Assembly (NCBI GenBank): GCA_964344235.1
Contig: CAYFMJ010000010.1
Coordinates: 1-26,740 of the forward strand
Direction of reading: 5' to 3'
From: an uncultured Methanosarcinales archaeon
Lineage (GTDB): Archaea; Nanobdellota; Nanobdellia; Woesearchaeales; GW2011-AR9
Length of the DNA stretch: 26,740 nucleotides
The position numbers and the translations under genes are program-made. Every line of letters begins with the position of its first letter. The first letter of the stretch is position 1. Shown in pieces: positions 1-26,740 of the stretch. The notes beneath the pieces are model-generated. The model searched no databases. It was not told where the DNA came from and worked only from the letters and a program-made list of their open reading frames with translations.

Positions 1-53
1 AGCTAAGAAATGTGTAGTAGTTTCGTGTTGTGTAGCAGTTTCGGGATATTAGA
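1..53. repeat. Left copy of a 53-bp perfect inverted repeat at the window ends
   Basis: Bases 1-53 (AGCTAAGAAATGTGTAGTAGTTTCGTGTTGTGTAGCAGTTTCGGGATATTAGA) are the exact reverse complement of 26688-26740. Identity ends at base 54 (G versus T). Confidence 0.98.
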
Positions 54-88
54 GTTAGGAATTAGTCCGATTGAGTAGATGCTCAGAA

Positions 89-2662
89 CTATCTCTTCCT
101 ACTTTTTCTAAAGAAATATGCGAACAGACTGGCAGTGACAATTAGCGCAAGGGCAATGATTATCCCATGCCAATAGCTAAACCGGTATGCATTGTCCCCC
201 GTAGAAGCTGTTTCTTTTTCCACTGCCTCATTTGCGGGGTCTTGTTTTACCTCTGCTGGCTGGTTTGTCACTTGTTCTTTCTCTCCTATGAGGAAATAAC
301 TAAATCCAGGAGTTTCTGCTTCATAATAAAAGTGATTATTGTCTTCACCAGTTAATGTTGTTGTTAATTCCTCCCACTTTTCAGTGAAGCGGAACATAGC
401 GAGGTCATCTTTGGAGAGATCATAATCTGCAAGCCATGACTTTTCAACATTGAATTTAATGATTACTGAATCTAAATCTTCTTCTTTAAGATTGGTGGAG
501 GAGATTTTAGAAATCCTGTAAATTTTCTTTTGAAATGTTGTTATCTCGGCAGGGAGTGCTTCAGTTGATTCAATTTTTAACTGTGGGGCTTTGACATCTT
601 TTGATACTATAAAGACTATCTCCTCGACTCCAAGGTTTTCTTGACCTGGAGCTATAGCTTTTTCGCCTCCATAAATTACTGACCAAATCGTTTTACTGCT
701 GGATGAGGATGGCACTGTTATACCACCACTGCTTCCAGTTGCAGGACTTCCGCCGCTTGAACTTGATGATGAACTACTCGAGGAATCTGATTCTGTTGCT
801 GCGGCCGCTGTTGTTGTAAACGAGGTAGTATTGCTTTGTGAGTTCTCTGCATTGTCAGTACAGGTTACGTTTACTGTATACGCAGTTCCTGCAGTAAGGC
901 CACTCAGTGTTGCATTGACAAGTTCTGCTGATGTAGTGTATGAAAGATTACCGATACCAGCACCCGTATAGTTGCACGTTGAGAAACCAGAAGCTGAGTC
1001 TGTTACGTTAGCTGTGAGGTTACCTCCTGTTGTCGTAATGCTCTCTATAGTAATAGCATGAATTGTCGGTGATGTTACGTCAATTCCAATAGTTACGTTT
1101 TCGGTGTTGTTAACTGTTGTTCCATCCGTTGCGTTGATAACGAAAGTATAGTTCCCGTCACCATAGGTTGTTGCATCGAAAGAGGCATTCCAAGAGGTTA
1201 TTGATGTGTTGCTTAAGGAGACCTCTCCACTGAGGTTTAGATTGGAGGAAAGGTTAACCACCTTGTACGTAACCTCTGTTGAGTTCACTTCTCCTCCGGT
1301 TGTTACGTTAATTGTGAAGTTAGAATTGTACCATGTGGCAGTAGGGTTATCAATTGTGACTGTGAGGTTTATTGACTGTGTTGAATAATTACTAAAACCG
1401 CTGACGTTAGCATAGAGGATGCCATTTGTAGAATCGTAACTAATATTACAAGCGTTTGTATCATCACATCGTGTGCTGTCTTTTAGAAGTTTTGGTGCAG
1501 AGATGTATGTCAAGTTTCTAATCTCTATCTCAGCGGTTGTATTTAACGAGCTAATATTAGCGTTGGTCTCTAAGCCCACGAGATTCTGCTGGAGGAAGAT
1601 ATTTGTGTTGACAATAAGATTGCTTTTGAAAGTTAAGTTTGTTAGGGCGTTCCAAGTAATTTGGCCAAGGGAATTGTTGTAGATTTTGGTGCTGTTACAA
1701 CCTCCTTTAATGAAATCTATTGCAGTTGAATTATGGAAATTATTGTTAATGTAAGTTCCGGAGCAAGAATCATGAATCTTCACCCCGTGATCCTGAAGTT
1801 TTGCCGTTGTTGTTTCAACCAATGTAAGGGTAGGGGTTAGGTCATACCCTGCACTTATAGATATTGAGCTCGCGTTAATGGGATTGTCTAATGCTGTTGA
1901 GTTATATGTGTACGCACCCCCTTGGCCGGAGTTGATGAATATGTCTTTTGCCATAGCATAACAAGGGGCTCCTGCGGTTGCTTCGAACTCATCACAATCA
2001 TCAATTGCTTCAGCTTCTGTGAGATAAACTGATGCTCTTTCATTTCCTCCAATCCCAGTTCCGTTGATACAAGCAACGCTAATCTTAGAAGTTCCCGTTA
2101 GGACAGTACTATTTGTCCGGTTGTTTGTTGGGGTAATGTCGGTTAGTATCTGAACGCCAATATTATAAAATGTTGTTCCATTTGACGCATAGAGGGCACT
2201 GTCACATCTTGTGCCATCGTGTGTTATTGGTGAAAGGGTACTGTTATAGAAATATGTGCTATCAAGAGTAAAGTTCGTACTTCCGTTAATGACGTTATCC
2301 TGGAGAACAGTACTATTAGAGTTGTTTAAAACGACACTTGTGACTGATCCTTGTACTAGAATAGTATTGTTGGTTATGTTATTGTTTGCTGAAGAGAATA
2401 ATGAGATTGCGAAATTTCTATTGTCTAATGAAGCGTTAATGATTATGTGGTTATCAGCGATAAGAGTAGATTCCGCATCTTCAATGTAGACACCTCTTTC
2501 AATTGAGGGAAATGTGTTATTTCTAACAATAGTACCATTTGATTGGTTAATGAAGACTACGCCTGTGGCATCTTGGCTGTCACTGCGAATAGTGTTATTT
2601 TCAACGGTAACGTTTGTGCTGTTCAGTCGCACCATAATAGCAAAATCACTGGGCCCCTCCAT
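89..2662 (-). CDS. C-terminal part of a large surface glycoprotein: parallel beta-helix (NosD/CASH-like) repeats, Ig/Fn3-like stalk, Ser-rich linker, PGF-pre-PGF domain, C-terminal TM anchor
   Basis: Asn-rich repeats (NNTI, NNHI, NNNITNNTI), many N-x-S/T sequons, a SSSSSSSSSGGS linker, the YYEAETPGFSYFLIG PGF motif, and a hydrophobic helix followed by RKSRKR. It has no signal peptide, so it is probably frameshifted from 2646-3599. Confidence 0.85.
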   Translation of the reverse strand: MEGPSDFAIMVRLNSTNVTVENNTIRSDSQDATGVVFINQSNGTIVRNNTFPSIERGVYIEDAESTLIADNHIIINASLDNRNFAISLFSSANNNITNNTILVQGSVTSVVLNNSNSTVLQDNVINGSTNFTLDSTYFYNSTLSPITHDGTRCDSALYASNGTTFYNIGVQILTDITPTNNRTNSTVLTGTSKISVACINGTGIGGNERASVYLTEAEAIDDCDEFEATAGAPCYAMAKDIFINSGQGGAYTYNSTALDNPINASSISISAGYDLTPTLTLVETTTAKLQDHGVKIHDSCSGTYINNNFHNSTAIDFIKGGCNSTKIYNNSLGQITWNALTNLTFKSNLIVNTNIFLQQNLVGLETNANISSLNTTAEIEIRNLTYISAPKLLKDSTRCDDTNACNISYDSTNGILYANVSGFSNYSTQSINLTVTIDNPTATWYNSNFTINVTTGGEVNSTEVTYKVVNLSSNLNLSGEVSLSNTSITSWNASFDATTYGDGNYTFVINATDGTTVNNTENVTIGIDVTSPTIHAITIESITTTGGNLTANVTDSASGFSTCNYTGAGIGNLSYTTSAELVNATLSGLTAGTAYTVNVTCTDNAENSQSNTTSFTTTAAAATESDSSSSSSSSSSGGSPATGSSGGITVPSSSSSKTIWSVIYGGEKAIAPGQENLGVEEIVFIVSKDVKAPQLKIESTEALPAEITTFQKKIYRISKISSTNLKEEDLDSVIIKFNVEKSWLADYDLSKDDLAMFRFTEKWEELTTTLTGEDNNHFYYEAETPGFSYFLIGEKEQVTNQPAEVKQDPANEAVEKETASTGDNAYRFSYWHGIIIALALIVTASLFAYFFRKSRKR

Positions 2663-3599
2663 TTGTTATAACATCAAAATCGTTGTTAGGGCCTATCGTT
2701 ATTCTGTTCGCAAGAACTTTCTGGATAGTAATCCCCTGAATGGCTCGGCTAAAATTGTTACCCTCGATTGTAAGATTCTTAACGTAGCCACTTGAGGCGC
2801 CCCCTGAAAAATAAATTGCGGGTGAGGCGGCTGCAAAGGTATTATTGCGTATTGTAATATCCTGAGCAAAGTCACCACCAAGAATAGTTGTACTGATATC
2901 AATAAGCCCATTGGTTTGACCATTGCCTTCTGAGTTAGTATAAATAAAAGTGTTGTTTTCAACTGTAAGATTCGATATGTTGCCAGAGTAAATAGCTCCT
3001 GCCCATGCCGGATGGGATACGTTGAACTCATTGTTGATAATCTCCCAGTGACTCGCTTGTCTTTCATTGGTGTCGCCGCCTGCTATCAATGAGTAAGCGG
3101 TTCTACTGTTGTTGGATGTGAAGTTACTATAATTAACCAAAAGATTGCTGATGTGAAGTTGGAGTGCAGAATCGGATGCGTTTAGTATGCTAACGTTTTG
3201 GACATAAACTTGTGAGGGGGTAATTTGTGAGTCTTCTATGTATATTCCATATGCAAAAGTATCGAGAATCAGGTTCTGGAAAGTTATATTGCTAATACTC
3301 AACTTTTCGATCATAATGGCATCAGTGGAACTATTGCCAGTTATTGTATATCCTTGGCCATCAAGCGTGATGTGGCTGGCGTTAATAACAAGACAAGAAG
3401 TTGCGCTTGAGCCGCCAAAGAAACTTTTGTTTAGCGTATAAGTCTCTCCACTCTCATTTAACGTTACACCATTTGTGTTGAATGTACAGTTGCTGACGTT
3501 TATCTCTGCAAACACAGTAGTGCTTTCTCCACTGAGAAAGAATATACAAAACAGAAAGAAGAATAGTAGTGTGCAGCTAAACCAAACATTATTTTTCAC
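2646..3599 (-). CDS. N-terminal part of the same surface protein (signal peptide plus beta-helix repeats)
   Basis: GTG start with a GGGGTGA SD just upstream, hydrophobic signal peptide, CLVINASHITLDGQGYTITG beta-helix start and further Asn-rich repeats. It overlaps the downstream ORF by 17 nt. Confidence 0.8.
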   Translation of the reverse strand: MKNNVWFSCTLLFFFLFCIFFLSGESTTVFAEINVSNCTFNTNGVTLNESGETYTLNKSFFGGSSATSCLVINASHITLDGQGYTITGNSSTDAIMIEKLSISNITFQNLILDTFAYGIYIEDSQITPSQVYVQNVSILNASDSALQLHISNLLVNYSNFTSNNSRTAYSLIAGGDTNERQASHWEIINNEFNVSHPAWAGAIYSGNISNLTVENNTFIYTNSEGNGQTNGLIDISTTILGGDFAQDITIRNNTFAAASPAIYFSGGASSGYVKNLTIEGNNFSRAIQGITIQKVLANRITIGPNNDFDVITNGGAQ

Positions 3600-3632
3600 A
3601 AGTTCACCCCTTTTATATGAAAAATGAATTAG

Positions 3633-6404
3633 TTAACTTTTATAAATTCTTCGGTGAGGTGGTTCTCTAACCCTTTCATTTGAACTGTACAGCTTTGGTT
3701 TGGTTATGTCTTTTTGATTTTTTGCGATGGCGTCAAATCGATTATAATGAATAAGAGATACATTGTCAAAGAGTACATGCCCATTAATTCTCCGGTTACT
3801 TTCGACATCGGCACTTAGGATTAATTTTATAGAAGTTGTTGCCGAGGGGACAGGAATTTTCTTCATTTGAATACCCTCCCATGCGGGTGATGAACTACTG
3901 TCTGTTATCGCAATTGTTTCATTGTTTTGATTCATGAACTCAACCGTTAACGATGCCATGGCGTTACTCGCCGCTTTAGCTTCAGCATGAGTGGATATCA
4001 TTAAAGCCCCTTTGCTAATGAGCTCTTGTTCACAAGTTACATCGATTTGTTGGGCGAGGGTTGTTCCTGTTGCTAAGAAAAACATTTTGTCTCCGACCTC
4101 ATCATCAGTCTTTACAAGTTCACTAGAAGCAACCCAATAGTTTAGTGATTGAGAGGCGTCGTGGTTCTTTACTCTGTTGCTTTCTTTTCTTTTGAATAAT
4201 GCTTTCATGTTCTCTGAATTGGTGAGCGTTTTCTCGTACACAGCTTCCGTAGAACCGTCAGACCATTGCACAAACTCAAACCCATTATTGGCAGTTGCCG
4301 AGAGGGTTATAGGAATATTGTTGAAGTATGTTCCTGACCACGGTGGTGAACTTGGAGTGACAGTGTTGATACTAACAGTACCACCACAGGGCGGTTCAAT
4401 AGTTATGGTTGAAGTCCCATCAATATCATCAAAGTAGTTTGTTAAGTGCTCAAAAACGTAATCTCTTCGTGGTTTAGACTCTCCGGAACCCTCTATATAT
4501 TCTTTCATTTGATTAATAGCGCTGTTCCAATCAGACAGGGTGTACCATGGTATAGTACTTTTTTCCCAGCGTTCAATGTGACGGTTGATCTCGGGTTCAA
4601 GTGTCTGGGAAAGTTGGTTCATAGTTCCCATAATTTTTGCAGGTTCCAAGTTGCTGTTCATAAGGTCGGCAAAACGATTGAGGAATTGTTTTCTAAATTT
4701 CTCATTAATAAGTAAGCGTTTCATCATCTCCCGCCAGACAATTGGTTTTTCGTTAACTAAGTAAGTGTTGTAATAATGTAGAGAGTAATTGAACGAATTG
4801 AAATGAGGGTTCTTGTATTGCGCTTCTTGAACACCCCCGCCAAAGGCGAAGTCGGTATCGAATAGCAGGAAACGCCATTTGCTACTTGGCTTCTGGTGCC
4901 AAATCTTAATATTGTTGTAAGGCCAATCGTGGTTGCCAACAAAAATCTCAAGGATACTATAATCAATAAAATTGTCGATGTCAATGTGGTTAGTTATATA
5001 TTCGTAATTCTCAGTTTCACTCATATCATTGCTTAGCATAAATTGAAACACATCTTCAAATTGCATGAAACCGTCTGTGCCGTCAGCTTTGTATATGTTG
5101 TGAGCAAGTTCGAGAATTGTTACGCTATCTTTATCAATGTTGAAGTTTTCAGCAAGATAATACTCATCCATTCTCTCACGAATATTGTAAATTCCCCAAT
5201 ATTCACCATTAATGAAAAGAATTGCTGGTTGGTACGCTTGATAATCAATGTTAAGATCTTTGGCGATAATGTGAACAAATGCATCACGAAAATGAGTCTT
5301 GTGCTGACTCGTTGGATAGGCAATGCCATCCTGGCCAGAAGTCCGAAGTATGATGCGCTTGAAAGAGTCTATATCTTTATGAGGAAATAAGGCGTACTCA
5401 ATTTTGTCAGTGCCAAATGTTTTCTTAGCGTATACTCGCAGTGCTTTTTGGTGGCCTTGCATGAATGTCGTGAACTCCCCATGTGGTTTTGCTTCTGCGT
5501 CAAGGCCAAATTGAAAGTTGCCAGTGGAATCAAAGTATTCAATATGGAGTGGTTTTGCTATTTTGTTTCCGTATGTCTGAATAACGTTCTGTTTGAAAAG
5601 CCCTACAAAAATGTCGTTGTATGTTCCCACAACAGAAATAATTGGCAGTGTTGAAACTTCGTTTATGAGGTATGTTTTTGTGATAGTGGGGCTTGGTAGC
5701 TTCCCTTCCGTGACAGATATGGCCCGCAGCGGTGTAGTTTTAGCAATAGAGATTGGTTCTGTGTAGAGATGATTGACAGTTTGATTCGGCGTCTCCCCGT
5801 CTGTTGTAAAGTATATTTTAGTGTTTGGTTCAGGAACTGTGATGGTGAGTGTGACTTCGTCTTCGTACGACCCCGCTTCATGGTTGAATGTGGGGGGTGT
5901 AGAGAGGGCTATCCCGTTTGATGAACTAGGAGTTGGGTTAGAGAATGCAGCCCACATTTCGCTGCCATCAGGGTTGCGTCCAATTGATGTATCGGCCTTC
6001 TGTTCAGAGAAGATGATAGAATCTATGAGTGTTTCCCCGTCATTTGCGTAAAGACTAATAAACTCACCATCACCATCTAACTTAAAATTGGTGTGCAACG
6101 GTCCGAGAGACGGTTCGTCATCAGCAATAAAAAGTAAAAACCCTTTTGATTCGATGATGGTTCCATTTGGAATTTGGTATTTTGTGGGGTGGCCTTCTTT
6201 ATCGGAAAGAAACATACCGCTTAAATCAACTGTCTCTTCGCCAATGTTGTAAATCTCAAACCAATCTGGAGAGTCAGTCTCTGAGATAAGTATGTTGTCA
6301 TTTATTGCAAGGAGTTCATTAATTGTAAGGTCGTCTTGGTTTCCAAGAACACTAGGGATAAGTAAAATAATTGCAAGTATTATCATGTAAAATTTTTTCT
6401 TCAT
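3633..6404 (-). CDS. Secreted CotH-family kinase with lamin-tail domain, Fn3-associated/chitobiase-like domain and C-terminal beta-rich domains
   Basis: Signal peptide; INELLA...DWFEIYN...DLSGMFLSD (lamin tail); IYFTTDGETP...TTPLRAIS; LFINGEYWGIYNIRE, NHDWPYNN and WRFLLFDTDFAFG (CotH kinase motifs). Confidence 0.9.
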   Translation of the reverse strand: MKKKFYMIILAIILLIPSVLGNQDDLTINELLAINDNILISETDSPDWFEIYNIGEETVDLSGMFLSDKEGHPTKYQIPNGTIIESKGFLLFIADDEPSLGPLHTNFKLDGDGEFISLYANDGETLIDSIIFSEQKADTSIGRNPDGSEMWAAFSNPTPSSSNGIALSTPPTFNHEAGSYEDEVTLTITVPEPNTKIYFTTDGETPNQTVNHLYTEPISIAKTTPLRAISVTEGKLPSPTITKTYLINEVSTLPIISVVGTYNDIFVGLFKQNVIQTYGNKIAKPLHIEYFDSTGNFQFGLDAEAKPHGEFTTFMQGHQKALRVYAKKTFGTDKIEYALFPHKDIDSFKRIILRTSGQDGIAYPTSQHKTHFRDAFVHIIAKDLNIDYQAYQPAILFINGEYWGIYNIRERMDEYYLAENFNIDKDSVTILELAHNIYKADGTDGFMQFEDVFQFMLSNDMSETENYEYITNHIDIDNFIDYSILEIFVGNHDWPYNNIKIWHQKPSSKWRFLLFDTDFAFGGGVQEAQYKNPHFNSFNYSLHYYNTYLVNEKPIVWREMMKRLLINEKFRKQFLNRFADLMNSNLEPAKIMGTMNQLSQTLEPEINRHIERWEKSTIPWYTLSDWNSAINQMKEYIEGSGESKPRRDYVFEHLTNYFDDIDGTSTITIEPPCGGTVSINTVTPSSPPWSGTYFNNIPITLSATANNGFEFVQWSDGSTEAVYEKTLTNSENMKALFKRKESNRVKNHDASQSLNYWVASSELVKTDDEVGDKMFFLATGTTLAQQIDVTCEQELISKGALMISTHAEAKAASNAMASLTVEFMNQNNETIAITDSSSSPAWEGIQMKKIPVPSATTSIKLILSADVESNRRINGHVLFDNVSLIHYNRFDAIAKNQKDITKPKLYSSNERVREPPHRRIYKS

Positions 6405-6470
6405 AAGGATGCACAGTATTTTTTTCTATAATTGAGCAATCTTTATAAAACTCTCTGCTTTTATTTTGTC

Positions 6471-7049
6471 ATGGATCTGAGGATGTTGAAAAAAGAGGTG
6501 CAAGGGCTGCAGAATGTTGAGAAAACTATTGCAGCATTTGAGAAGCATTGGCTCAAGCCGATAAAAACGTCTACAAATAAGCATTTACCTTTTTTACAAG
6601 ATCTTTGTGATAATAGAAAGAAAGAGCTAAATGCAGAGTTAGCGGCGTTGAAAGGGATTCTGCAGCAGATAAAGTCTGGTCAGCGAATTAATGAAAAGTT
6701 GCAACATTACGCTCGCTATTTAGTTGAGTTGAAATTGGCAGAGATTCAAGGTAATGTTTCTAAATCTGCATCTATTACAAATACTTTATTACGTGATGAT
6801 TTTCTCAATGTATCTCAAACGATTCAAGACATTACGTTATTTGATAGTGTTGTTACAGAATTAGGAGAACGGTATCATGATATTTTAGAAATGATGCATG
6901 GTGATTTATCTCTGGAAGAATCAGTAGCGGTGATGGAACAACCGCATCACGTTCATTTACGGGAGTTGCATGCAGTTGCACGTGAACAGAAACGGTTAGT
7001 GCATGCTCTCGGAAAATCGTTTGTAATGTTAGCGAGGGAGAAAGAATGA
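6471..7049 (+). CDS. Hypothetical helical protein (start moved to ATG 6471)
   Basis: Long open frame. TTTATAAA at 6442-6449 lies 21 nt before ATG 6471. ATGA overlap with the next gene. Confidence 0.7.
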   Translation: MDLRMLKKEVQGLQNVEKTIAAFEKHWLKPIKTSTNKHLPFLQDLCDNRKKELNAELAALKGILQQIKSGQRINEKLQHYARYLVELKLAEIQGNVSKSASITNTLLRDDFLNVSQTIQDITLFDSVVTELGERYHDILEMMHGDLSLEESVAVMEQPHHVHLRELHAVAREQKRLVHALGKSFVMLAREKE

Positions 7050-7285
7050 CGATTACATTTGGTGTTGGGGTTGTAGGGATGAGTTTGATTTTGATTGGCT
7101 TTATTTTAGATGAGTTTGTTGATTCCCTTGATCAGGATACAATATATTATAATGTAATTAATTTGTGTGGTGCGGGGTGTCTAGTGTATTATGCGTATAG
7201 TATTGTTAGCTGGCCGTTTCTTGTGTTAAACGCGGTATGGTTTCTTGTTGCAGGGTATAAGTTAGTTCTACTTGTGAAGAAATAG
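7046..7285 (+). CDS. Small membrane protein, CBU_0592/SemiSWEET-like
   Basis: Three hydrophobic segments with the pattern GMSLILIGF...YNVINLCGAGCLVYYAY...WPFLVLNAVW. Confidence 0.7.
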   Translation: MTITFGVGVVGMSLILIGFILDEFVDSLDQDTIYYNVINLCGAGCLVYYAYSIVSWPFLVLNAVWFLVAGYKLVLLVKK

Positions 7286-7287
7286 GT

Positions 7288-8694
7288 TTATGGTTCTGGG
7301 AAAATAATCATCCCATCTTCTTCGTTTGTAGAGTATTGTGGCGTTACGCATGGATCTTCAACAATTTCCCATTGTTGTGTTTCTAAGTTACACATCATAG
7401 ATGTTCCACCAAGTGGTTCTGGTGTTAATTTTGAGAAGTAATTAGGGATGTCTTCTACTGCTGTGGTTGGAATCCAACCGCCAACACCTGCTGTGATCTC
7501 ACTCATGTAAGGTTTACTGCTTTCAAAGGCCCCAACTGCGAAAAAGAAAATATCAACGCCCGCTGCAGCTGCTTGTGCGTTTATCTCTTGAGTGTTATAA
7601 CTATTGTTGGAAATTTTCCCATCGCTTAGGATAAAGCAAGCTTTTGGTTCTTCAATTGTTTCTTGTTCGAGAAGCGTTACACACAAACCAACAGCTTTGT
7701 TAATATTACTTGATCCACCAACGTCTACATCAACTAAAGCATTAATGTAACTATGGAACACGGTGTGGTTGACAGCGAAGGGCCCCATTTGTTGTGTCTC
7801 TTTTGCGAAAGGAATAACCATTGCACTTAACCCCTCATACCAGACCTCTTCGACACCATATAGGCCCTCAATCATAGTTCCTTTTACTGCACTTGTGCTA
7901 CCTGATAAATCTGGGCTAAAGATGACTGTTGCGGGTTCACAACTTGCTAATGGAATTACTGCCGGTTCACAGCATGAAATATCAATGGTTGAGTCGTCAC
8001 AATCGGGAATACTACCCACTAAATTTGGTGTACAAGAATATTCTGTGTCTGTTAACACACCAAATCCGTCACCATCATTATCGATTGGAAATTTATCTGT
8101 ACCCTCATCGATTAAACCGTCACAATCATTGTCTTTATAATCACATACTTCTACTTCTGGAATTGGAATCTCTGCGCAGGCGGTGTAATCCCAAAAACCA
8201 ATTTCTGTACAAACTTGTTCTGCATAACCACAAGCTGTTTCTGGTCCACATGGTTGTGTAATAAATTCAAATTCGCCTGTTTCTTCTGAAAGAACCATGT
8301 TTATTGGGGTTTCAGGATTACAATCGTTATCATATCCATCACAAATTTCAGGTGCTCCCGGGTAGACCGTGGGAATGTCATCATTGCAGTCAGCAAGATT
8401 ATCAACAAATTCGACCATGCCGTAAGGTGTTGCAAGTGGTTCTGGCTGAGTACAACTCATTTTGAATGCAGAACCGTTGTTATCTTTTGCAGTTTTACTA
8501 CCAAAGCCATCCCCGTCGTAATCTAAGAACCAAGGCGTTTCTTCGCAATTATCTATTGCACTAATTCTATTTATTGGTGGGACGCTATACCTAACTGCTG
8601 GTTCTCTTTCCACGTGAGCTTCTTTTTTTTCTGCACATGCTCCCAATGTTAATGTTGCTGTTAATAGAATTCTGGTTGTGAGTTGTCCAAGCAT
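7288..8694 (-). CDS. Lipoprotein with Cys/Asp-rich MopE-like putative metal-binding repeats and a C-terminal vWA domain
   Basis: Lipobox LGAC; DYDGDGFG and DNDGDGFG; DCNDD..VYPGAPEICDGYDNDCN and EVCDYKDNDCDGLIDEG; vWA MIDAS DLSGS and ILSDG. Confidence 0.8.
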   Translation of the reverse strand: MLGQLTTRILLTATLTLGACAEKKEAHVEREPAVRYSVPPINRISAIDNCEETPWFLDYDGDGFGSKTAKDNNGSAFKMSCTQPEPLATPYGMVEFVDNLADCNDDIPTVYPGAPEICDGYDNDCNPETPINMVLSEETGEFEFITQPCGPETACGYAEQVCTEIGFWDYTACAEIPIPEVEVCDYKDNDCDGLIDEGTDKFPIDNDGDGFGVLTDTEYSCTPNLVGSIPDCDDSTIDISCCEPAVIPLASCEPATVIFSPDLSGSTSAVKGTMIEGLYGVEEVWYEGLSAMVIPFAKETQQMGPFAVNHTVFHSYINALVDVDVGGSSNINKAVGLCVTLLEQETIEEPKACFILSDGKISNNSYNTQEINAQAAAAGVDIFFFAVGAFESSKPYMSEITAGVGGWIPTTAVEDIPNYFSKLTPEPLGGTSMMCNLETQQWEIVEDPCVTPQYSTNEEDGMIIFPEP

Positions 8695-8731
8695 GTGTAA
8701 AAAATGGTAAAGGGTATATACTATATAAACA

Positions 8732-17519: not shown

Positions 17520-17752
17520 TCAACATCTATCAAAAATATCAAAATCAAAATGATATATAAAGACTATCAACGTCGAATATAGAGACTGAAAGCCGATACC
17601 ACTCTGGAAAAAATATTTTGTTTTACTACTGTTGTTTTGTAGTTGTTTGGTACTACTCTTCAAAGAAATTTAGTGTTGTTTTGACTCTTTATTTTTTGAT
17701 TATAATTATTAAGAATGCAAATGTTTAAGTAGATTTTTCATTTCACAATACT

Positions 17753-18505: not shown

Positions 18506-18508
18506 AGT

Positions 18509-18724: not shown

Positions 18725-18760
18725 AGTAATAATTACTTTAGAAACTATATAAACATTTCC

Positions 18761-19267
18761 TCACTTCTGCACTAACTCAACGGCTTGATGGCTTTCTACA
18801 TCTCCAGAAGAAGCATTTATTTTGATGTTAATGAATTTCAAACTTTTTGTGATAAACGTAAAGTTCCATAATGGTTTTCCTTCTAATGTCTGAATAACAA
18901 TAAACCCGTCACCAACTTCTTCGTTAGGGAACAGCTCTTTCTTTTTTGCAATGAAAATGTCAGCTGCTTCATCGACAGTTTTTGTTACTGTAGTAATATC
19001 AAGTTCTTCAACGACTTCCTGTTCTTTCTTAAATACGTCATCTTCAGGTTTGATTGCAAAGCTCCCCTCTTTAGGAGATGTGAACACAGTAATTTTATTA
19101 TGTTCTTTATTGAAGAAACCTACTTCCCAATTTGTTTTTGCTTTTAATTCTCCAGAAACGGCACAAAAGAAGTGTGATAAATAGGATTCAGGTTTCTTCC
19201 ACTCTTTAAATAAGTCGGATTGTTGTAATTGTTTCAGAAATTCTTGAGGAGGAGGGAGTGATCTCAT
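18761..19267 (-). CDS. Hypothetical protein, translationally coupled to tfs
   Basis: 168-aa open frame with an ATGA overlap on the tfs stop. Possible PepSY-like C-terminus (WNFTF...INASSGDV). Confidence 0.7.
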   Translation of the reverse strand: MRSLPPPQEFLKQLQQSDLFKEWKKPESYLSHFFCAVSGELKAKTNWEVGFFNKEHNKITVFTSPKEGSFAIKPEDDVFKKEQEVVEELDITTVTKTVDEAADIFIAKKKELFPNEEVGDGFIVIQTLEGKPLWNFTFITKSLKFINIKINASSGDVESHQAVELVQK

Positions 19268-19584
19268 GCGTATTCCCGCCAGGTATGGTTACATTTCACA
19301 CATTTGAAGAATCGTGTCTCTGGCTCATCAGCACCACGAGTTTGTTGAATCCAATAGTATGCAATCCCGTGACCACACTTCTCACAACGAGTTTTGACTT
19401 TCGGATGCGTTTCAATCTGCTCAATAACTTCGATTTTCTTGCCTTCATTAGACGTTTCTCTAATTTCAGCTGTATCTGCCTCTTCCTGTGCTTTAGTGTA
19501 GCCACAGGCACAATAGAGAACTTTCTTTCCAGATTTTTCTTTTGGTCGTAGTATAGAACCGCACTCGGGGCAGAACATTGTCAA
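19264..19584 (-). CDS. tfs: Transcription elongation factor TFS
   Basis: Two zinc ribbons (CPECG...CACG; CEKCG...CVKC) and the QTRGADEPET acidic hairpin. Confidence 0.96.
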   Translation of the reverse strand: MTMFCPECGSILRPKEKSGKKVLYCACGYTKAQEEADTAEIRETSNEGKKIEVIEQIETHPKVKTRCEKCGHGIAYYWIQQTRGADEPETRFFKCVKCNHTWREYA

Positions 19585-19645
19585 TTACCTCGTGTTTTGG
19601 CTAGGATTAGTATTATGATTTATAAAATTTATCGATTTAGAGTAC

Positions 19646-20308
19646 CTATCTTTGAATATCTATGCCTAATGGCTTAACGGCATCTACGAAGAGAATCTTT
19701 AACCAGCCTAAATAAGGAATTCTCAGAATGCCCTTGCCTAATAAGCGGGACTCATCGATTTTAGTCTCACCAAACGTTCCCTGAATGGAGTCTGAGTTAT
19801 GATCGCCTTTTGTTTGGTAAAAGAATTGGCCATTTTCTTCCCAGATCTTAACGACTCTATGGATAATTGGCTGTGGTTTTGTGCCTTGGAAGACAAGAAT
19901 ATCTCCTATTTCTATCGTTTCTCTATTGGCTTTATACAGTATGATAACATCACCTTTGTCAAACCCATTCACAAAGGGGAATGAGGAAAATTGTTGTTTT
20001 GTAATACCATTATCTTCATACCATGCTCCACAAGTGTTCCAGTAGTTATCTAAAGAATCGTGGAACTCTTCAAACTTCTGGCCGCAAATAATTTGGTTGT
20101 GAATACCGTGTTCCATGCTTTCACTTACCACTGCAACGATTGGGAACCCTGTTCCTAGGACAACACCTAATACTGGATAGACAACGAAGCGAATCAGTAA
20201 GAATGCTACGATAATGTTAACGATCCAACTCCAGATGGAATCGTCTTTCCAGAAGAACTGCCAGAATTTTTTGCAGAGAAAGCAGGTTCTTTCCCAATGT
20301 TTTTTCAT
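19646..20308 (-). CDS. sec11: Signal peptidase I, archaeal Sec11 type
   Basis: N-terminal TM, VVSESMEH (catalytic Ser), KGDVI, IIHRVV and TKGDHN. Confidence 0.92.
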   Translation of the reverse strand: MKKHWERTCFLCKKFWQFFWKDDSIWSWIVNIIVAFLLIRFVVYPVLGVVLGTGFPIVAVVSESMEHGIHNQIICGQKFEEFHDSLDNYWNTCGAWYEDNGITKQQFSSFPFVNGFDKGDVIILYKANRETIEIGDILVFQGTKPQPIIHRVVKIWEENGQFFYQTKGDHNSDSIQGTFGETKIDESRLLGKGILRIPYLGWLKILFVDAVKPLGIDIQR

Positions 20309-20369
20309 GGTTGAGTTAATTCAAGTGGTTTTAAAAATGTTTTTATATGATGTTGTGTTTGTTCCTTCC

Positions 20370-21242
20370 ATGTTAATTGGGAAAAAGGTAGTGGATGAAG
20401 GAAAGATTCATGATTTACTACGCTTGATTAAACGTAAGAAAGAATTGTCTACAATCCGAGATGAGTTTGTGCATGATAGAATCTTTGAGTATTTTCAGAG
20501 GAATGTTAGTAAGACTGCGGTGTTAGGAAATCCTAAGTCGAAAAAATATAAACAGATTGTGAAAGATATCCGAGCGGAGTTACGGCGGGCATATGGGTTA
20601 TTTCGTGTTGAGGAGGATAGTAAAAAGAGAGCAGAGTTGGTTGAGTATTTAATTTCTTTATCAGCTGTGTCCAGGAAAGCAGTGACGGAAGTGCTGAAAA
20701 CACATTCTTCTACTCGGGAGAGATTAGAGATTTATGAGAAATTATATCAAAAATTGTGGAAGATAACCGGAACACCAAAGAAAATTTTAGATTTGGGCTC
20801 AGGAATTAATCCGTTTTCCATTCCATTGATGAAATTACGGTCGTTAGAGTATTATGCATACGACATTAGTGAGAATGAGACTAATTCATTGAATCAGTTT
20901 TTTGACTTTTTGTCCGAGAAGAATAGTTATTTCAGTGGGCATGCTGGTGAGTTAGACTTGTTACACTTTGCGAAGATTGAGAAGCTACGGAATGTTGATG
21001 TCTGTTTCTTGTTTAAAATGACTGATGTGTTAGATAAAGGAAAAGGGCACAAGATGTCAGAGGAAGTGATGACGAGAATTCCAGCAAAACATATTGTGTT
21101 AAGTTTCGCCACTAAAACTATGTCGGGAAAGAAAATGACTGCTCCACGAAGACGGTGGGTGGAATGGATGTGCACACGATTGGAGTGGAAATATAAAGTG
21201 TTAGAGTTTCCCAACGAGATTTTTTATGTGATTGCAAAGTGA
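20370..21242 (+). CDS. FmrO/ArmA/Rmt/Sgm-like rRNA methyltransferase (16S m7G1405 family); start moved to ATG 20370
   Basis: HSSTRERL motif, ILDLGSGINPF SAM-binding motif, YAYDI, DVCFLFK, VLSFATKTMSG, NEIFYV. The track ORF extension overlaps sec11 and its promoter. Confidence 0.8.
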   Translation: MLIGKKVVDEGKIHDLLRLIKRKKELSTIRDEFVHDRIFEYFQRNVSKTAVLGNPKSKKYKQIVKDIRAELRRAYGLFRVEEDSKKRAELVEYLISLSAVSRKAVTEVLKTHSSTRERLEIYEKLYQKLWKITGTPKKILDLGSGINPFSIPLMKLRSLEYYAYDISENETNSLNQFFDFLSEKNSYFSGHAGELDLLHFAKIEKLRNVDVCFLFKMTDVLDKGKGHKMSEEVMTRIPAKHIVLSFATKTMSGKKMTAPRRRWVEWMCTRLEWKYKVLEFPNEIFYVIAK

Positions 21243-21276
21243 ATCTTTTTATAGGCGTGGTTTTCTCTCTACTATA

Positions 21277-22359
21277 ATGGTATCGTTTACGTATATTCAA
21301 ACACAGGAACAGTTAGATGCTATCGTTAGTGAGTGGGGGAAAGAAAAAACGGTAGCAGTTGATTTAGAGTGTGAGAATAATTTACATCATTATGGTGTGT
21401 ATATCACGTTGATGCAAGTGTCTACACCAACAGGGAATTGGATTATTGATGTAATGGAAATTAAAGAGATCGGTTCTTTCTTGCGATTGTTGGAAGATAA
21501 AAGTATTGAGAAAATTTTTCATGATGTCAGTTTTGATTTACGAATTTTAAACCATCAGTTTCAATGCAAACCGAAAAATGTATTTGATACACAAATGGCC
21601 GCATATCTATTGGGAAAAGAGAAGGTGGGATTAGGTTCGTTGTTGGAAGAATATTTTGATATTGCAAAAGAACGGAGGTATCAACGTGTTGATTGGACAA
21701 AGAGGCCATTGTCATTAGGGATGTTAACGTATGCTGCGAAAGATACTGCATATTTGTTACAGTTGAAAGAAAAGTTAGTGACAGAGTTACGGAAAAAGAA
21801 TAGACTCACATGGATGGAAGAAGAAACAGAATTCTTGAATGGCGTTGAGTTTGTCTATCAGCAGCAGGAGTATATGGGTGTTTCTGGAGTAAAGAAAATG
21901 ACTGCGGAACAGAGGGGGAGGTTTAAAGCGCTGTTTGAGTTACGGGAGAACGTTGCGGAGAACGTTGACCGTCCTGTGTTTATGGTGATTCGAAATAAAT
22001 TATTGTTAGAATTAGCAGAGAAACCTCCTAAGGGGTTGCATGGGTGGAAAAAGTTGCGAGGAGTGCATCCAATGGTGCGTAAAGAAGCAGAGCAATGGTT
22101 TAGGGTCATTAAACATGCACGGGATGATGTCTATGTGAAACCAGAAGTGAAGCGGTTGTCATTAAAAGAATATCAGTGGAGTAAGAGGTTGTTAGAGTTA
22201 CGTAATACTATTGCAGAGCAGTTAGGGATTCAGGGATATTTAATTATGAATACAGAGCAGATGCGGGATGTTGTTGTTTCGAGGAGCTTGGGTTCGTTAA
22301 AGAAGTGGCAACAGAGTGTTGTGAACAAGAAAAAATTAGTAAAAGAAATTATTTCTTAG
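21277..22359 (+). CDS. rnd: RNase D-like DEDDy 3'-5' exonuclease with HRDC domain; start moved to ATG 21277
   Basis: AVDLECE (ExoI), KIFHDVSFD (ExoII), FDTQMAA, DWTKRPLS, YAAKD (ExoIII), and HRDC LRENVAENVDRPVFMVIRNKLLLELA. Confidence 0.88.
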   Translation: MVSFTYIQTQEQLDAIVSEWGKEKTVAVDLECENNLHHYGVYITLMQVSTPTGNWIIDVMEIKEIGSFLRLLEDKSIEKIFHDVSFDLRILNHQFQCKPKNVFDTQMAAYLLGKEKVGLGSLLEEYFDIAKERRYQRVDWTKRPLSLGMLTYAAKDTAYLLQLKEKLVTELRKKNRLTWMEEETEFLNGVEFVYQQQEYMGVSGVKKMTAEQRGRFKALFELRENVAENVDRPVFMVIRNKLLLELAEKPPKGLHGWKKLRGVHPMVRKEAEQWFRVIKHARDDVYVKPEVKRLSLKEYQWSKRLLELRNTIAEQLGIQGYLIMNTEQMRDVVVSRSLGSLKKWQQSVVNKKKLVKEIIS

Positions 22360-22753
22360 CTTTCCACCAACCAACAAGTGTCGTGGTGGCTACGAGCAAG
22401 ACTAATGTTAACCAGAATAGTGGGTTGAGGTAATAGGCAAGAGGATCTTGTGGTGCGGTTGATGAGAGAATAAATGGTACGATGATAATAGCGTCAATAA
22501 CAAAGCCAACACCCACAGCAATTAACCCAAAGTATAATCCTGTCTTAACTGATGGTGTTTCTGTTTTGAAATACCATAATGCGAACAATCCCATCAAGAC
22601 AATTGTAAAGACGATGCCCCAAATCCATAAAGTCATTGATGGTTCAACAGCCGTTGTTAAATCAATTCCAAGAACTGCAGCGCCAATAATTCCAATAAAG
22701 AATGATGCAAGATATGCAAGTACGCCCATCCAAATCGCTCTTTTAATGTTCAT
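22349..22753 (-). CDS. Small 4-TM membrane protein
   Basis: Four hydrophobic helices; TATA-like box 21 nt before the ATG. Confidence 0.75.
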   Translation of the reverse strand: MNIKRAIWMGVLAYLASFFIGIIGAAVLGIDLTTAVEPSMTLWIWGIVFTIVLMGLFALWYFKTETPSVKTGLYFGLIAVGVGFVIDAIIIVPFILSSTAPQDPLAYYLNPLFWLTLVLLVATTTLVGWWKAKK

Positions 22754-22807
22754 AGAGGGAGAATAGTTTTGGGGTTTATATTTCTTCTGTTTGATATCGT
22801 GAGAAAT

Positions 22808-22832
22808 TATTTAAACTGTTACAACAATTAAA
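22808..22832 (+). promoter_or_regulatory. TATA box plus palindromic putative operator of the RelBE-like pair
   Basis: TATTTAAA at 22808-22815 lies 21 nt before ATG 22837. TGTT-AC-AACA at 22817-22826 is flanked by TTTAA/TTAAA. Confidence 0.5.
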
Positions 22833-22836
22833 TTGC

Positions 22837-22989
22837 ATGGTTGAAGCTGTGAGTATGTCTGGGGAGAACATTTCAAAAGAAGCTTTGAGACGTTTGCATG
22901 AAGTTAAATCTGGAGAAGCTCAAGTTTTCTCTGAGAAGCGTTTCTTTAGGATTCTGAAAGAAGAAGGTATTAATGTTGATTCTATTTGA
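22837..22989 (+). CDS. 50-aa putative antitoxin (not in the ORF track)
   Basis: MVEAVSMSGENISKEALRRLHEVKSGEAQVFSEKRFFRILKEEGINVDSI. It overlaps the RelE gene by 17 nt, and its C-terminus resembles archaeal RelB-type partners. Confidence 0.75.
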   Translation: MVEAVSMSGENISKEALRRLHEVKSGEAQVFSEKRFFRILKEEGINVDSI

Positions 22990-23299
22990 GTTTCATGAAG
23001 ATTTTGAAAAAGATATCCGAAAATTGGATAGTGCTCAGAAACGGCAGTTGTTAAAAGCTTATCAAAAAATTAAAGAGAACCCAACACGCTTTAAGCACCT
23101 GTCTGGTCCTGGGAATTGTTATTCTGTTCGTATGGGAGATTTCAGAATAGTTTATTTGGTTGAAGACACAACTGTAACACTTCTTACGATAGAAAAAAGA
23201 GCAAAAGTATATGGTTCATACTTGAAAAGGTTATATACTATTAGAGAAGAACTCTTTCCATATGGATTCCAAGAAACAATTTCCTCAGAAACTTCTTGA
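22973..23299 (+). CDS. relE: RelE/ParE-family toxin
   Basis: FHEDFEKDIRKLD...KIKENP...YSVRMGDFRIVY...TIEKRAKVY. Confidence 0.88.
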   Translation: MLILFEFHEDFEKDIRKLDSAQKRQLLKAYQKIKENPTRFKHLSGPGNCYSVRMGDFRIVYLVEDTTVTLLTIEKRAKVYGSYLKRLYTIREELFPYGFQETISSETS

Positions 23300-24194
23300 G
23301 TGGTACTCAGTGAACAAACGAGATTTACCATGGAGAAAGGAGGATGTTACACCATATCACGTTGTTGTATCGGAGATAATGTTACAACAAACACAGGTGT
23401 CGAGAGTTATTGTAAAGTATCACGAATTTCTCGAAAGATTTCCAACGATTTTTGATTTAGCAAATGCACCTTCTGCAGATGTAATTCAGATGTGGAGTGG
23501 TTTAGGATATAATAGAAGGGCGTTGATGTTACACAAATTTGCCCAGGAAGTTGTTGAACGATATGACGGAGTGATTCCTTCCGTGCCTGAAGCGTTGATT
23601 AAGTTGTCCGGCATTGGAGCGTATGCGGCGGGCTCGATAGCATCGTTTGCGTTTAATCGACCAGAGCCTGCGATTGACGTGAATGTGCGGAGAATTTTCC
23701 ATAGATATTTTGATGGAATAGATAAAGGGTTGCCCGGTTCACGTGTTGAGGAGAAGAAGTTGTTTCGTTTGGTGAAAGAAGTTATTCCATCTGGGAGAAG
23801 TAGAGACTTCCATAATGCGCTGATGGATTTTGGTTCTGCAATTTGTTTGAGGAATAATCCAAAGTGTGGTGAATGTGTAATGGCTGGCTGTAGGTTTGCA
23901 CCGTTGTATGAAGAAAAGAAAGAAAAAGTGATGTTTGTGAAGGAGAAGAGGGTAGAGCCAGGTCGTGTGGAGGAAGGGAAACATATTCCAAATAGAATTT
24001 TTAGAGGAAGAATTGTGGAATTTGTGAGAAAGAATGCAGGAGTTATGTTGATTGATGAGTTAGGCAGAACGGTAAAGGAAGATTATTCTGTTAAGGATAG
24101 AGAGTGGTTATTAGGATTATGTGAGAAGTTGTCTAAGGATAAGTTAATTGTGTTTGAGAAAAGAGGAAAAGAAGTGGAGTTGGGATTGGGTTAG
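23262..24194 (+). CDS. mutY: A/G-specific adenine glycosylase
   Basis: RDLPWR, VVVSEIMLQQTQV, WSGLGYNRRA, LSGIGAYAAGSIASFAF, IDVNVRRI, ALMDFGSAIC...PKCGEC. Confidence 0.95.
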   Translation: MDSKKQFPQKLLEWYSVNKRDLPWRKEDVTPYHVVVSEIMLQQTQVSRVIVKYHEFLERFPTIFDLANAPSADVIQMWSGLGYNRRALMLHKFAQEVVERYDGVIPSVPEALIKLSGIGAYAAGSIASFAFNRPEPAIDVNVRRIFHRYFDGIDKGLPGSRVEEKKLFRLVKEVIPSGRSRDFHNALMDFGSAICLRNNPKCGECVMAGCRFAPLYEEKKEKVMFVKEKRVEPGRVEEGKHIPNRIFRGRIVEFVRKNAGVMLIDELGRTVKEDYSVKDREWLLGLCEKLSKDKLIVFEKRGKEVELGLG

Positions 24195-24195
24195 A

Positions 24196-25665
24196 CTATT
24201 CTAAAGGGTTGGTGGGTGTTTTTTCTATGGTTCTCGCTGTGTATAAGCCTCCTGGTACCTTTATTCCCTTTGGGTCGTTTGTTGGGCTGGGATTTGATGG
24301 TTGTGGAACAGATCCTAGCTTCTGCAGCTCCACTGCATTAAATGCAAATTGTGTCACACCAGTGTCGGCTCCTCCTTCCATAACTTCCCTCTCGGCTCTT
24401 TCATAAGGGTTATTGTCTCCGTCAAATGTTTGCCGGAAATATGCTTCAACATCAACACCATTTCTTCGGGCGTCCAAGAGTGCTCGCATGACAATTCCTG
24501 TGACGCGTGAGTCCATACGCTGTAATAATTCCTGGCCCGTTAGTGATTCTAGCGGATTTGTGTATAGTGAGCTTCTTTCGGCAGCTTGCTCTTCTCTAAT
24601 TCTGTATCTTCTAAATGCTTCTGCGTATCCCGATATGCCAGGGGCAACGACGGCTCCAAATTCTCTTGCAGTTATTCTTGGTACTTCCTGTCCATCACTG
24701 TCAACAAATCGATGGTGATACACTGTTGCCATTAACGTTGCTGCCTGCTCGGTAGCGATTCTGAACCAATTCTGCCGCCGGGCACCAATTGCATCTTGGT
24801 CATCTCTAAATCCAGTAACTCCTGATGCTGCAAGGTAGAGCTTCACTAAATTCGCTGCACTTTCAGCCCCATAACCGGTTACTCGAGAAACATGTGCGAG
24901 TTCAATAAGACTAGTTGTTAGAGCTTCTCCGAGAGGCATCTCTGCTCCTGGGTCAATACCATAATCAAACAACGTTCTTGATGTGCCTGCATGGGCCATT
25001 GTTCGCATTGGGGATCGTGCTCGTGCTATTCTTTGCCTTTGCGTTAGAGCCGAAACGGGGTCTGCTCTTCCATGGTCTCGGAATAGGAAATACGGCGCGC
25101 GTAATTCACTTTCTAGAGCTTTTATGTGGTCGAGATACCCTCCCGCATCTTCGGGATCAAAGCCGGCGGCTTTAAATGCGCTATTGGTAACGTTGCGTTC
25201 TAAATTAGCAACTATAACTGGGTTTGGTTTAAATGATCTCTTGTGTTTGTGGAGGTGTTTTAATTCACTTGCAGTCCATCGATGTGATTTCCACGCTAGG
25301 GTTGTGCGGTTAAGTTCATCATCTTGCAAGCCTCCTTCAGGTTTTAGGGAATAAGTTCTTGATTCAATCTCTGAGAAATATTGAAACGCTACCTCAACTC
25401 CTGTTACAGCTCCTCGAAGTGAATGCCTAGTTGCGGTCATTAGGCCGGGAACTTCTATTAAACGTTCGAGACTGACTGAGTCTACCCTTTCAGTGATCGG
25501 GGCACCCTCTTCGTGTAAATCAAATCTTCCTTGTCTTCCGTGGTTTGCTGCTTCTAATGCTTGTTGGCGTCGCTGCTCAATCCTCATACGGCCTGTCACA
25601 GTCCAGCCATCCCAGAAATCTTGCCAGACACCTGCGGCCCTGTCCCATAATGCTTTGTAATCCAT
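24196..25665 (-). CDS. Hypothetical 489-aa protein, no recognised domain
   Basis: Long open frame with a TTTATACC box 23 nt upstream and a Pro-rich C-terminal tail. Confidence 0.75.
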   Translation of the reverse strand: MDYKALWDRAAGVWQDFWDGWTVTGRMRIEQRRQQALEAANHGRQGRFDLHEEGAPITERVDSVSLERLIEVPGLMTATRHSLRGAVTGVEVAFQYFSEIESRTYSLKPEGGLQDDELNRTTLAWKSHRWTASELKHLHKHKRSFKPNPVIVANLERNVTNSAFKAAGFDPEDAGGYLDHIKALESELRAPYFLFRDHGRADPVSALTQRQRIARARSPMRTMAHAGTSRTLFDYGIDPGAEMPLGEALTTSLIELAHVSRVTGYGAESAANLVKLYLAASGVTGFRDDQDAIGARRQNWFRIATEQAATLMATVYHHRFVDSDGQEVPRITAREFGAVVAPGISGYAEAFRRYRIREEQAAERSSLYTNPLESLTGQELLQRMDSRVTGIVMRALLDARRNGVDVEAYFRQTFDGDNNPYERAEREVMEGGADTGVTQFAFNAVELQKLGSVPQPSNPSPTNDPKGIKVPGGLYTARTIEKTPTNPLE

Positions 25666-25771
25666 ACGTTTAATTTTTTAGATAATTTGGTATAAATATT
25701 TTGTGTAATAGTAACGTTTCTTATGGTAGTCAAAAGATAGATTAATAAAGAATACTTCTCTTGGTTTTGCT

Positions 25772-26200
25772 ATGAAAGCGTCGTACAAATTTATTGACCA
25801 CACAGCAGATGTTCTGTTTGAAGCGGAAGCTCCTACACTGCCTGAATTATTTGCGCAATGTGGCTTGGCGTTAGAAGATACGCAGGTTGATGTAACGTTA
25901 ATTGAGGCAAAGGAAACAGTTGAAATTACTGGGAAGAATGCGAAAATTGACAGGTTACTATTTGATTTTTTAGATGATGTATTATACCACAAAGATGCGG
26001 ACTTATTAATTTTTAACCAGTTTGATATTACTATTGATGAAGATGGTGGCGAGTATAGTTTGAAATGTACTGCACATGGCGAAAAGTTGGACCATTCGAA
26101 ACATGATCCCAAAGTTGATGTGAAAGCAATTACGATGCATTTGTTTGAAGTGTCTGAGATTGCAGGTGGTTGGAAAGCAAAAGTGTTGGTAGATATTTGA
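25772..26200 (+). CDS. Archease (RtcB tRNA-ligase activator)
   Basis: YKFIDHTADV N-terminal motif, VKAITMH and KVLVDI C-terminus. Confidence 0.96.
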   Translation: MKASYKFIDHTADVLFEAEAPTLPELFAQCGLALEDTQVDVTLIEAKETVEITGKNAKIDRLLFDFLDDVLYHKDADLLIFNQFDITIDEDGGEYSLKCTAHGEKLDHSKHDPKVDVKAITMHLFEVSEIAGGWKAKVLVDI

Positions 26201-26209
26201 GGTGGAAAA

Positions 26210-26329
26210 ATGAAAGTTGCGGCGGTATATGGTTCTGTGAGGAAAGCACGTGTGGGAAAGTTTTTAGATGAGTTGGAGTGGTATGCGAAAGCGTGTAAAG
26301 CACAGAGAAAGAAGGGTGTGCCGTATTAG
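26210..26329 (+). pseudogene. 39-codon remnant of an NADPH-dependent FMN reductase (N- and C-termini joined in frame)
   Basis: SD GAGGTGG at 26199-26205. MKVAAVYGSVRKARVG resembles the flavin-phosphate-binding N-terminus (GSxR), and KFLDELEWYAKACK resembles the terminal helix of the family. Confidence 0.7.
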
Positions 26330-26667
26330 TGATATGTTGGTGTGGTGTATGAGCTTTGTATTTTTGGTTTGTAGGCATTAAGTGATGTGGAGATGTCAGA
26401 ATAGAACCCTAATTTTTCTGCAACCGGCGTTGAACCAATGTTATAGTTTCCGGTTGTCAATCTTGACGTTATATCTGTTCCTCGCCCTGCGTAAGAAAAG
26501 CTTGCTTCAGGAGCTCCAAGGAGTTCGCCACTTCTGATCCGTCTAAAGTAATCATCCTCAATCTGTGGCGGGGCAATTGTTGCAGCCTCTCTATGGTCTC
26601 TGTAGAGAGTTCTTCGAATATGCTCGCTTTCATGTGCGGTACTTGTATTTGAGACGCTTAGGTACAT
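26326..26667 (-). CDS. Hypothetical 113-aa protein next to the right inverted repeat
   Basis: Open frame filling otherwise empty sequence. No recognised motif and no TATA at the usual spacing. Confidence 0.4.
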   Translation of the reverse strand: MYLSVSNTSTAHESEHIRRTLYRDHREAATIAPPQIEDDYFRRIRSGELLGAPEASFSYAGRGTDITSRLTTGNYNIGSTPVAEKLGFYSDISTSLNAYKPKIQSSYTTPTYH

Positions 26668-26687
26668 AATGTATGATAATACTTTTA

Positions 26688-26740
26688 TCTAATATCCCGA
26701 AACTGCTACACAACACGAAACTACTACACATTTCTTAGCT
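26688..26740. repeat. Right copy of the 53-bp perfect inverted repeat
   Basis: Exact reverse complement of bases 1-53. Confidence 0.98.

Follow-up and report, generated by a model that had tools for sequence, protein, structure and literature searches.

We found that the inverted ends of the window, by which we mean the whole 26,740-nucleotide stretch of DNA analysed here, almost certainly represent an IS481-type insertion sequence (IS): each is the outermost 53 bases of one of two copies, in opposite orientation, at which the assembly stopped. The window is the entire contig C10 of a Woesearchaeota-type metagenome-assembled genome (MAG). An earlier reading made from the letters of the window (the sequence-only reading) had offered four explanations for the repeat: a contig that breaks off at either end in a copy of a dispersed repeat or IS, an invertible segment, an element mobilised in trans, and a small linear replicon. 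Our analysis supports the first of these, as the 53-mer recurs at 15 contig ends of the assembly, belongs to an IS481-type element, and is followed at both ends of C10 by target-site duplications that pair with other contigs. In the mechanism we propose, the genome would carry about 15 near-identical, ∼950-bp copies of this IS481-family element, which a de Bruijn graph assembly with k = 55 would be unable to cross. The contigs flanking each copy would keep its outer 51 to 55 nt, the collapsed IS contig, presumably smaller than 1 kb, would have been dropped from the MAG, and C10 would lie between two copies that both turn the same end towards it.

Terminal repeats, duplications and contig order

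Bases 1 to 53 of the window are the exact reverse complement of bases 26688 to 26740, and the match breaks off at base 54. An exact match of 53 nt within 26.7 kb excludes chance. Our sequence comparison confirmed the perfect 53-bp repeat claimed in the sequence-only reading and bore out its suspicion that the true repeat is longer than 53 bp, C10 being a whole contig whose repeat touches both contig ends. The assembly is 96% complete and consists of 37 contigs with a total of 1,188,452 bp; the GC content of C10 (0.393) is similar to that of neighbouring contigs. A search for the 53-mer in the rest of the bin, which the sequence-only reading had advised, located it at 13 contig ends besides the two of C10. 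We refer to this sequence as end A. It faces outward every time, at C1_L, C2_R, C4_L, C8_L, C13_L, C15_R, C29_R, and both ends of C6, C7, C10, and C12 (_L and _R denote left and right contig ends). A second common sequence, end B, is found at 14 contig ends. Read inward, ends A and B begin TCTAATATCCCG and TGTAGTATCCCG, respectively, and from these starts we assign both to one element as its imperfect terminal inverted repeats. Of the 74 contig ends in the assembly, 29 are IS junctions, and when contigs of at least 19 kb are taken alone the proportion is 23 of 32.

The finished contigs were our sole source for the k-mer size, the copy number, and the contig order, by way of contig ends and duplication pairing. 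Contig-end overlaps that do not involve the IS number 13 (7 dovetails and 6 shared prefixes), and since every one of them is exactly 55 nt long, the assembly graph was built with k = 55. This is the value against which the sequence-only reading had wished to see the 53 bases compared. IS overlaps span 51 to 55 nt, the longest of 55 nt being found at C29_R. The interior of the element is absent from the assembly, where neither a PF00665 search nor tblastn with the transposase gave a match, and internal matches to the IS ends in the assembly were limited to one 19-nt remnant. Full elements with the same ends, found on metagenome contigs and in related MAGs, measure 922 to 960 bp and are flanked by 15-bp duplications. 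Being shorter than the smallest contig of the MAG (1051 bp), a collapsed IS contig would have been lost under an apparent 1-kb cut-off. Collapsed-repeat breaks in de Bruijn graph assemblies likewise leave k-length ends on many contigs while the body of the repeat is missing, and we see no difference between that pattern and the one described here.

The flanks beyond the repeats tie the contigs together. Fourteen of the 15 flanks next to end A pair one-to-one with all 14 flanks next to end B by an exact reverse-complement duplication, each B end being used once; C12_L is the sole A end that lacks a partner. Thirteen of these pairs are 15 bp long and one is 16 bp. This exact pairing identifies the sequences as target-site duplications and implies about 15 insertions in the genome. 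At the left end of C10, the duplication is the 16-bp sequence GTTAGGAATTAGTCCG (54..69, + strand), whose second copy lies at the left end of C11: the flank past end A of C10_L is the exact reverse complement of the flank past end B of C11_L. At the right end, the duplication is the 15-bp sequence ATGATAATACTTTTA (26673..26687, given for the + strand), which matches the C20_R flank exactly and has its second copy at the right end of C20. Because both IS copies turn end A to C10, the ends of C10 are identical inverted repeats, and because the two copies have different duplications, they arrived independently, one between C11 and C10 and the other between C10 and C20. Duplication pairing orders nine contigs into a chain of ∼830 kb, C3-C6-C20-C10-C11-C2-C29-C13-C1, and yields two shorter chains besides. 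We infer that the present order is still C11-C10-C20. When pooled with duplications from relatives (n = 37), 34 are 15 bp long, two are 16 bp, and one is 14 bp. Among the relatives, matching duplications are missing from 12 of the 49 assembled copies of this IS group, as either IS-IS recombination or chimeric assembly would produce; loci with such mismatched flanks in related MAGs include L033, L034, L036, L041, L043, L049, L069, L071, and L076.

Two further features of the assembly were noted. Three contigs of ∼1 kb (C30, C32, and C36) have a GC content of 0.57 to 0.70, compared with 0.39 for the genome, and are probable bin contamination. Several small low-GC contigs form bubbles linked by 55 nt (C1_R/C28_L/C27, C33/C35/C37, and C5_R/C8_R), suggesting other repeats or strain variants.

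The insertion sequence and competing explanations

The transposase was characterized from full copies in relatives and metagenomes, the interior of this genome's own copies being unseen. Full copies contain a single open reading frame (ORF) of 287 to 291 aa, represented by a 288-aa transposase with the Pfam domains HTH_28, rve, and rve_3. The NCBIfam IS481 model NF033577 matches it over positions 3 to 283 of 284 (E 1.7e-60, 204.9 bits), and the competing models reach 96 bits (IS3) and 82 bits (ISNCY). The DDE triad, D138, D194, and E239, is invariant in nine sequences. The ORF begins with a start codon at positions 52 to 54 of end B, and its stop codon (window bases 15 to 17) falls within end A; end B starts with TGT and end A with TCT or TGT. 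The IS481 family spans lengths of about 0.95 to 1.3 kb in the ISfinder table. The element shares with the family a single ORF with helix-turn-helix (HTH) and rve DDE domains, its length and TGT ends, and the 15-bp duplication. Duplications of 15 bp have been reported for ISMac4 and ISA0963-1, two IS481 members from archaea, and eukaryotic IS481EU elements have 15/16-bp duplications and a TGT start (PMC10045372). In our reading, the element diverges from typical IS481 sequences but belongs to that family, within the subgroup with 15-bp duplications, and not to another one; it would be a new member of that subgroup.

Related elements were found on nine contigs in a metagenome scan, none of them from the same organism, the match being confined to the IS ends. 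An exact 30-mer of end A had no match in the genome-contig collection, in which the own genome is possibly masked. The hosts of related elements are MAGs labelled Woesearchaeota or Nanoarchaeota, with a few labelled Methanosarcinales or Saccharibacteria.

Within the window, IS copy 1 is represented by 53 nt at the outer edge of end A, which is its right, transposase-distal end (1..53, + strand). They are identical to 14 other contig ends, and the body of this copy lies beyond the contig, to the left of base 1. These 53 nt align with end A of the relatives' full-length elements, with the ORF ending ...E-L-K-S-V-stop at the same place. The last transposase codons fall at 1-17 (+), including the TAG stop at 15-17, and the conserved outer 12-nt terminus falls at 42-53 (+). 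The inner heptamer TGTGTAG, which reads CTACACA towards the IS interior, occurs twice, at 11-17 and 29-35 (+), and this arrangement is mirrored at 26706-26730. IS copy 2 is represented by the same 53 nt in the opposite orientation (26688..26740, - strand), its body lying to the right of base 26740.

A comparison of ∼40 elements showed that the terminal repeats have two parts, a fixed outer 12 nt and a variable inner heptamer. The heptamer covaries between the ends, with one copy in end B and two in end A (loci L032-L086), and is CTACACA here but GTTTACA, GTTCGCA, TTCCGG, and others elsewhere. We presume the inner heptamers to be transposase-binding sites, and their covariation looks like a putative lineage-specific binding code. 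End B additionally has a short hairpin at positions ∼33 to 48, just 5′ of the transposase ATG, which encloses a GGTG ribosome-binding motif. From one lineage to another, the two arms of the hairpin vary in a compensatory manner (AACCAC/GTGGTT, CCTCAC/GTGAGG, and CATCAC/GTGATG). By analogy, this hairpin resembles the fold-back by which some bacterial IS elements sequester the ribosome-binding site against read-through expression. A casposon, a candidate raised by the 15-bp duplication, was ruled out: casposons encode a Cas1-type casposase and a family B polymerase and span several kb, whereas this element is ∼950 bp long with one rve transposase.

Several points weigh against our explanation of the inverted ends. 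Most IS overlaps are 51 to 54 nt long and fall below the full 55 nt, for which end trimming is a possible cause. The score of 204.9 bits lies under the curated cut-off of 224 of the IS481 equivalog model NF033577. With the interior unseen in this genome, the length and coding capacity of the copies had to be extrapolated from relatives that are 92-98% identical at their ends; internal deletions could affect some of the copies or all of them, although we infer that they are full length. Lastly, the copy number is a count of contig ends, and the order and orientation of C10 obtained from duplication pairing describe the state at insertion.

This last point bears on whether the segment inverts. 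The two inverted IS copies, ∼950 bp long and identical where visible, might recombine, so that the 26.6 kb between them would exist in both orientations. Long inverted identical repeats 26.6 kb apart are an established substrate for homologous recombination, and the relatives' 12 copies with mismatched duplications are accommodated by such events as well as by chimeras. However, both C10 duplications pair cleanly as simple insertions, and we found neither a recombinase or invertase gene nor a dedicated switch site in the window, while the assembly is silent on orientation. We consider inversion unlikely, and it would in any case add to the IS explanation, not replace it.

The copies in this genome might instead be short non-autonomous derivatives (MITEs, miniature transposable elements with inverted repeats) mobilised in trans, which we hold to be similarly improbable. 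The visible part of each end is limited to 51 to 55 nt, no transposase was found in the 96%-complete assembly, and a MITE contig would likewise be smaller than 1 kb. On the other hand, if all copies were MITEs, the genome would have no source of transposase. The visible ends also hold the transposase start (end B 52-54) and the last codons with the stop (end A), as in full-length relatives, and full-length copies are the commonest form in related MAGs, as seen in a transposase-baited search that favours coding copies.

That the 26.6-kb segment and its two IS copies move as one unit, as a composite transposon or terminal inverted repeat (TIR) element, is very improbable. An inverted IS pair does formally bracket the segment. 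A composite transposon would have one duplication common to its outer flanks, but here the duplication at each IS is a separate one, shared with its inner flank, and C11 and C20 have unrelated sequences as outer flanks. It follows that the copies inserted separately and that the whole unit has not transposed, which contradicts the element mobilised in trans proposed in the sequence-only reading; the cargo, moreover, consists of core housekeeping genes. A small linear replicon with terminal inverted repeats and essential genes aboard, to which the identical inverted contig ends and nothing further point, has a negligible chance of being correct, as the same end is found on 13 other contig ends and belongs to an IS that continues past the contig, both flanks have duplications in common with chromosomal contigs, and Pfam scans of the 30 window ORFs (reporting limit E <= 1e-3) revealed no terminal protein, protein-primed polymerase, telomere resolvase, or Orc1/Cdc6. 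The sequence-only reading had stated that its last three explanations would fall if the 53-mer proved to be the end of a multi-copy IS or repeat and the contig ends extended into one fixed context with no inversion. The multi-copy IS and, by pairing, the fixed context were both found, but the present orientation is unreadable from an assembly broken at both copies.

Insertion at promoters

The IS very probably targets the upstream edge of promoters composed of a B recognition element (BRE) and a TATA box. Among the 14 paired insertions of this genome, 11 have TTTATAAA (<=1 mismatch) exactly 7 nt past the duplication on one side, seven of them as an exact copy. The genome contains only 133 exact copies of TTTATAAA, and the binomial P is about 1e-22 to 1e-27. 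Outward ORFs start ∼20 to 80 nt after these TATA boxes, several at ∼22 nt, and the boxes therefore look like real promoters, some of them for leaderless mRNAs. Independent insertions in other species show the same TATA register. In a logo of the 34 insertions with 15-bp duplications, the sequence past the duplication reads M-R-A-W-A, two free positions, and T-T-T-A-T-A-W-A, with A at +5 in 34/34 insertions, and the duplication and the far side are almost without information. A side-independent offset scan gave the same result: strict TTWAWAWA occurs 17 times at offset 7 and 0 times at offsets 0-6 and 8-14.

The heptamer between the duplication and the TATA box matches the archaeal BRE consensus, cRnaAnt. 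Given this BRE-like heptamer, the duplication abuts the upstream edge of the BRE-TATA unit and the core promoter is left intact. The promoter at an insertion reads away from the IS, and both IS orientations were found, with end B proximal to the promoter at 25 of 37 sites. Selection against gene disruption cannot explain a register held to a single base, which argues for targeting. It is conceivable, though we think it somewhat doubtful, that the IS is steered by TBP/TFB bound to and bending BRE-TATA and not by plain sequence readout, and so integrates at the promoters of many genes. The far side has a weak mirror signal, T at -5 in 20/34 insertions, and neither a TATA box nor a BRE. This weak preference suggests that some direct, symmetric readout may occur. 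Symmetric readout of AT-rich DNA was rejected as the full explanation of the target, the far side having no TATA box or BRE, and would be a partial contributor at most.

Individual sites add to this picture. The right-hand insertion of the window (26665-26687 together with the right end of C20) is atypical and has a weak TATA-like octamer, TTAATGTA. Its duplication lies 5 nt upstream of the ATG of ORF 26326-26667(-), and the IS may have separated this ORF from its promoter; on the C20 side, no outward ORF of >=60 aa was found nearby. Outside the window, 19 nt of end A stand alone as a remnant at C1:212540-212558, with TTTATATA, a 7-nt spacer, and 15 nt before them. This TATA-7-15 geometry is that of live insertions, and a copy since deleted seems to have left the remnant as a scar, which would make it a 16th insertion event. 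At L049, one of the copies with mismatched flanks in related MAGs, both flanks have a TATA box at offset 7, as expected from two insertions that recombined (inversion) or from loci joined by the assembler. The TFB gene of this genome, C7:38428-39348(-), is the first gene beside the C7_R/C14_L insertion.

Gene content, significance and comparison with known systems

The chromosomal genes between the IS copies fill 70..26672, and the cargo of C10 is ordinary chromosome. None of the 30 window ORFs matched a transposase, integrase, recombinase, polymerase, or terminal protein in our Pfam scans, in agreement with the sequence-only reading, which had noted the lack of a mobility enzyme, polymerase, or terminal protein. 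Of the core genes it had named, gins (Gins51), tfs (TFS zinc ribbon), a bud32-like gene (RIO/Bud32-like kinase), and trxA (thioredoxin) were confirmed by Pfam, while sec11 and archease were unseen at E <= 1e-3. The window also encodes two EndoIII-type glycosylases, a ThyX-Tmk fusion, a dCMP deaminase, an RNase D-like exonuclease, HicA, ParE, and a CotH kinase. Two nucleotide-metabolism fusions are adjacent at 14168-16468, one joining an AAA-type kinase domain to dCMP deaminase and the other a ThyX-like domain to thymidylate kinase. The genes at the C10 junctions are poorly conserved; they have no Pfam family or encode a surface beta-helix protein, and related genera are represented by one or two genomes each.

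With the inverted ends explained as IS copies, the apparent oddity is gone: this DPANN genome presents neither a linear mini-chromosome nor a giant TIR element, nor any demonstrated invertible island. This MAG and several relatives owe most of their fragmentation to a single IS, and duplication pairing recovers the order of nine contigs, the window included. The same IS has reached about 15 near-identical copies within a reduced genome of 1.19 Mb. Insertion at the edge of promoters offers a route by which a transposon can multiply in a gene-dense genome without killing genes, and the insertion sites could serve as promoter annotations. Whether an rve-fold transposase reads promoter DNA itself or the TBP/TFB complex becomes a testable question.

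The known systems closest to the element are the archaeal IS481 15-bp subgroup (ISMac4 and ISA0963-1) and the IS481EU/Banshee elements (PMC10045372), which are alike in having a single HTH and rve DDE ORF, a length of ∼0.95 kb, and a TGT terminus. They also share the 15-bp duplication, occasionally 14 or 16 bp, and the element differs from the IS481 family in a score slightly below the curated NF033577 cut-off. Neither the IS481EU paper (PMC10045372) nor a 2026 survey of archaeal IS elements (PMC13343696) mentions a TATA box, promoter, or target site for IS481. In a literature search of incomplete coverage that did not extend to ISfinder, we found no description of a TATA- or promoter-targeted archaeal IS481 element, and as far as we could find, a BRE-TATA-anchored target of such an element is undescribed.

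Promoter-directed insertion is known from Firmicutes, in which the TnGBS conjugative elements and ISLre2-type IS insert 15-17 bp upstream of sigma-A promoters (PMC3942029). These, too, are DDE elements whose insertions lie a short and constant distance upstream of a core promoter, leave it intact, and so avoid gene disruption. Their transposase is Mutator-like, whereas that of the element described here is rve/IS481-like, and the two further differ in host domain, in promoter type (-35/-10 versus BRE/TATA), and in spacing. The resemblance is behavioural only, and our element is no member of that group.

A second likeness is to Ty3 of yeast, which has an integrase of the rve type that is tethered to TFIIIB (TBP and Brf1) at RNA polymerase III start sites. 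Both systems combine an rve-fold integrase with near single-base placement relative to a promoter complex of the TBP/TFIIB family. Ty3, however, is a long terminal repeat retrotransposon with a 5-bp duplication that integrates at the start site, whereas our element inserts upstream of the BRE. Tethering has been shown for Ty3 and is a hypothesis for the element described here; if it is true, the IS would correspond in archaea to the Ty3-TFIIIB system and would provide a ready means of probing which promoters are occupied in uncultured DPANN archaea.

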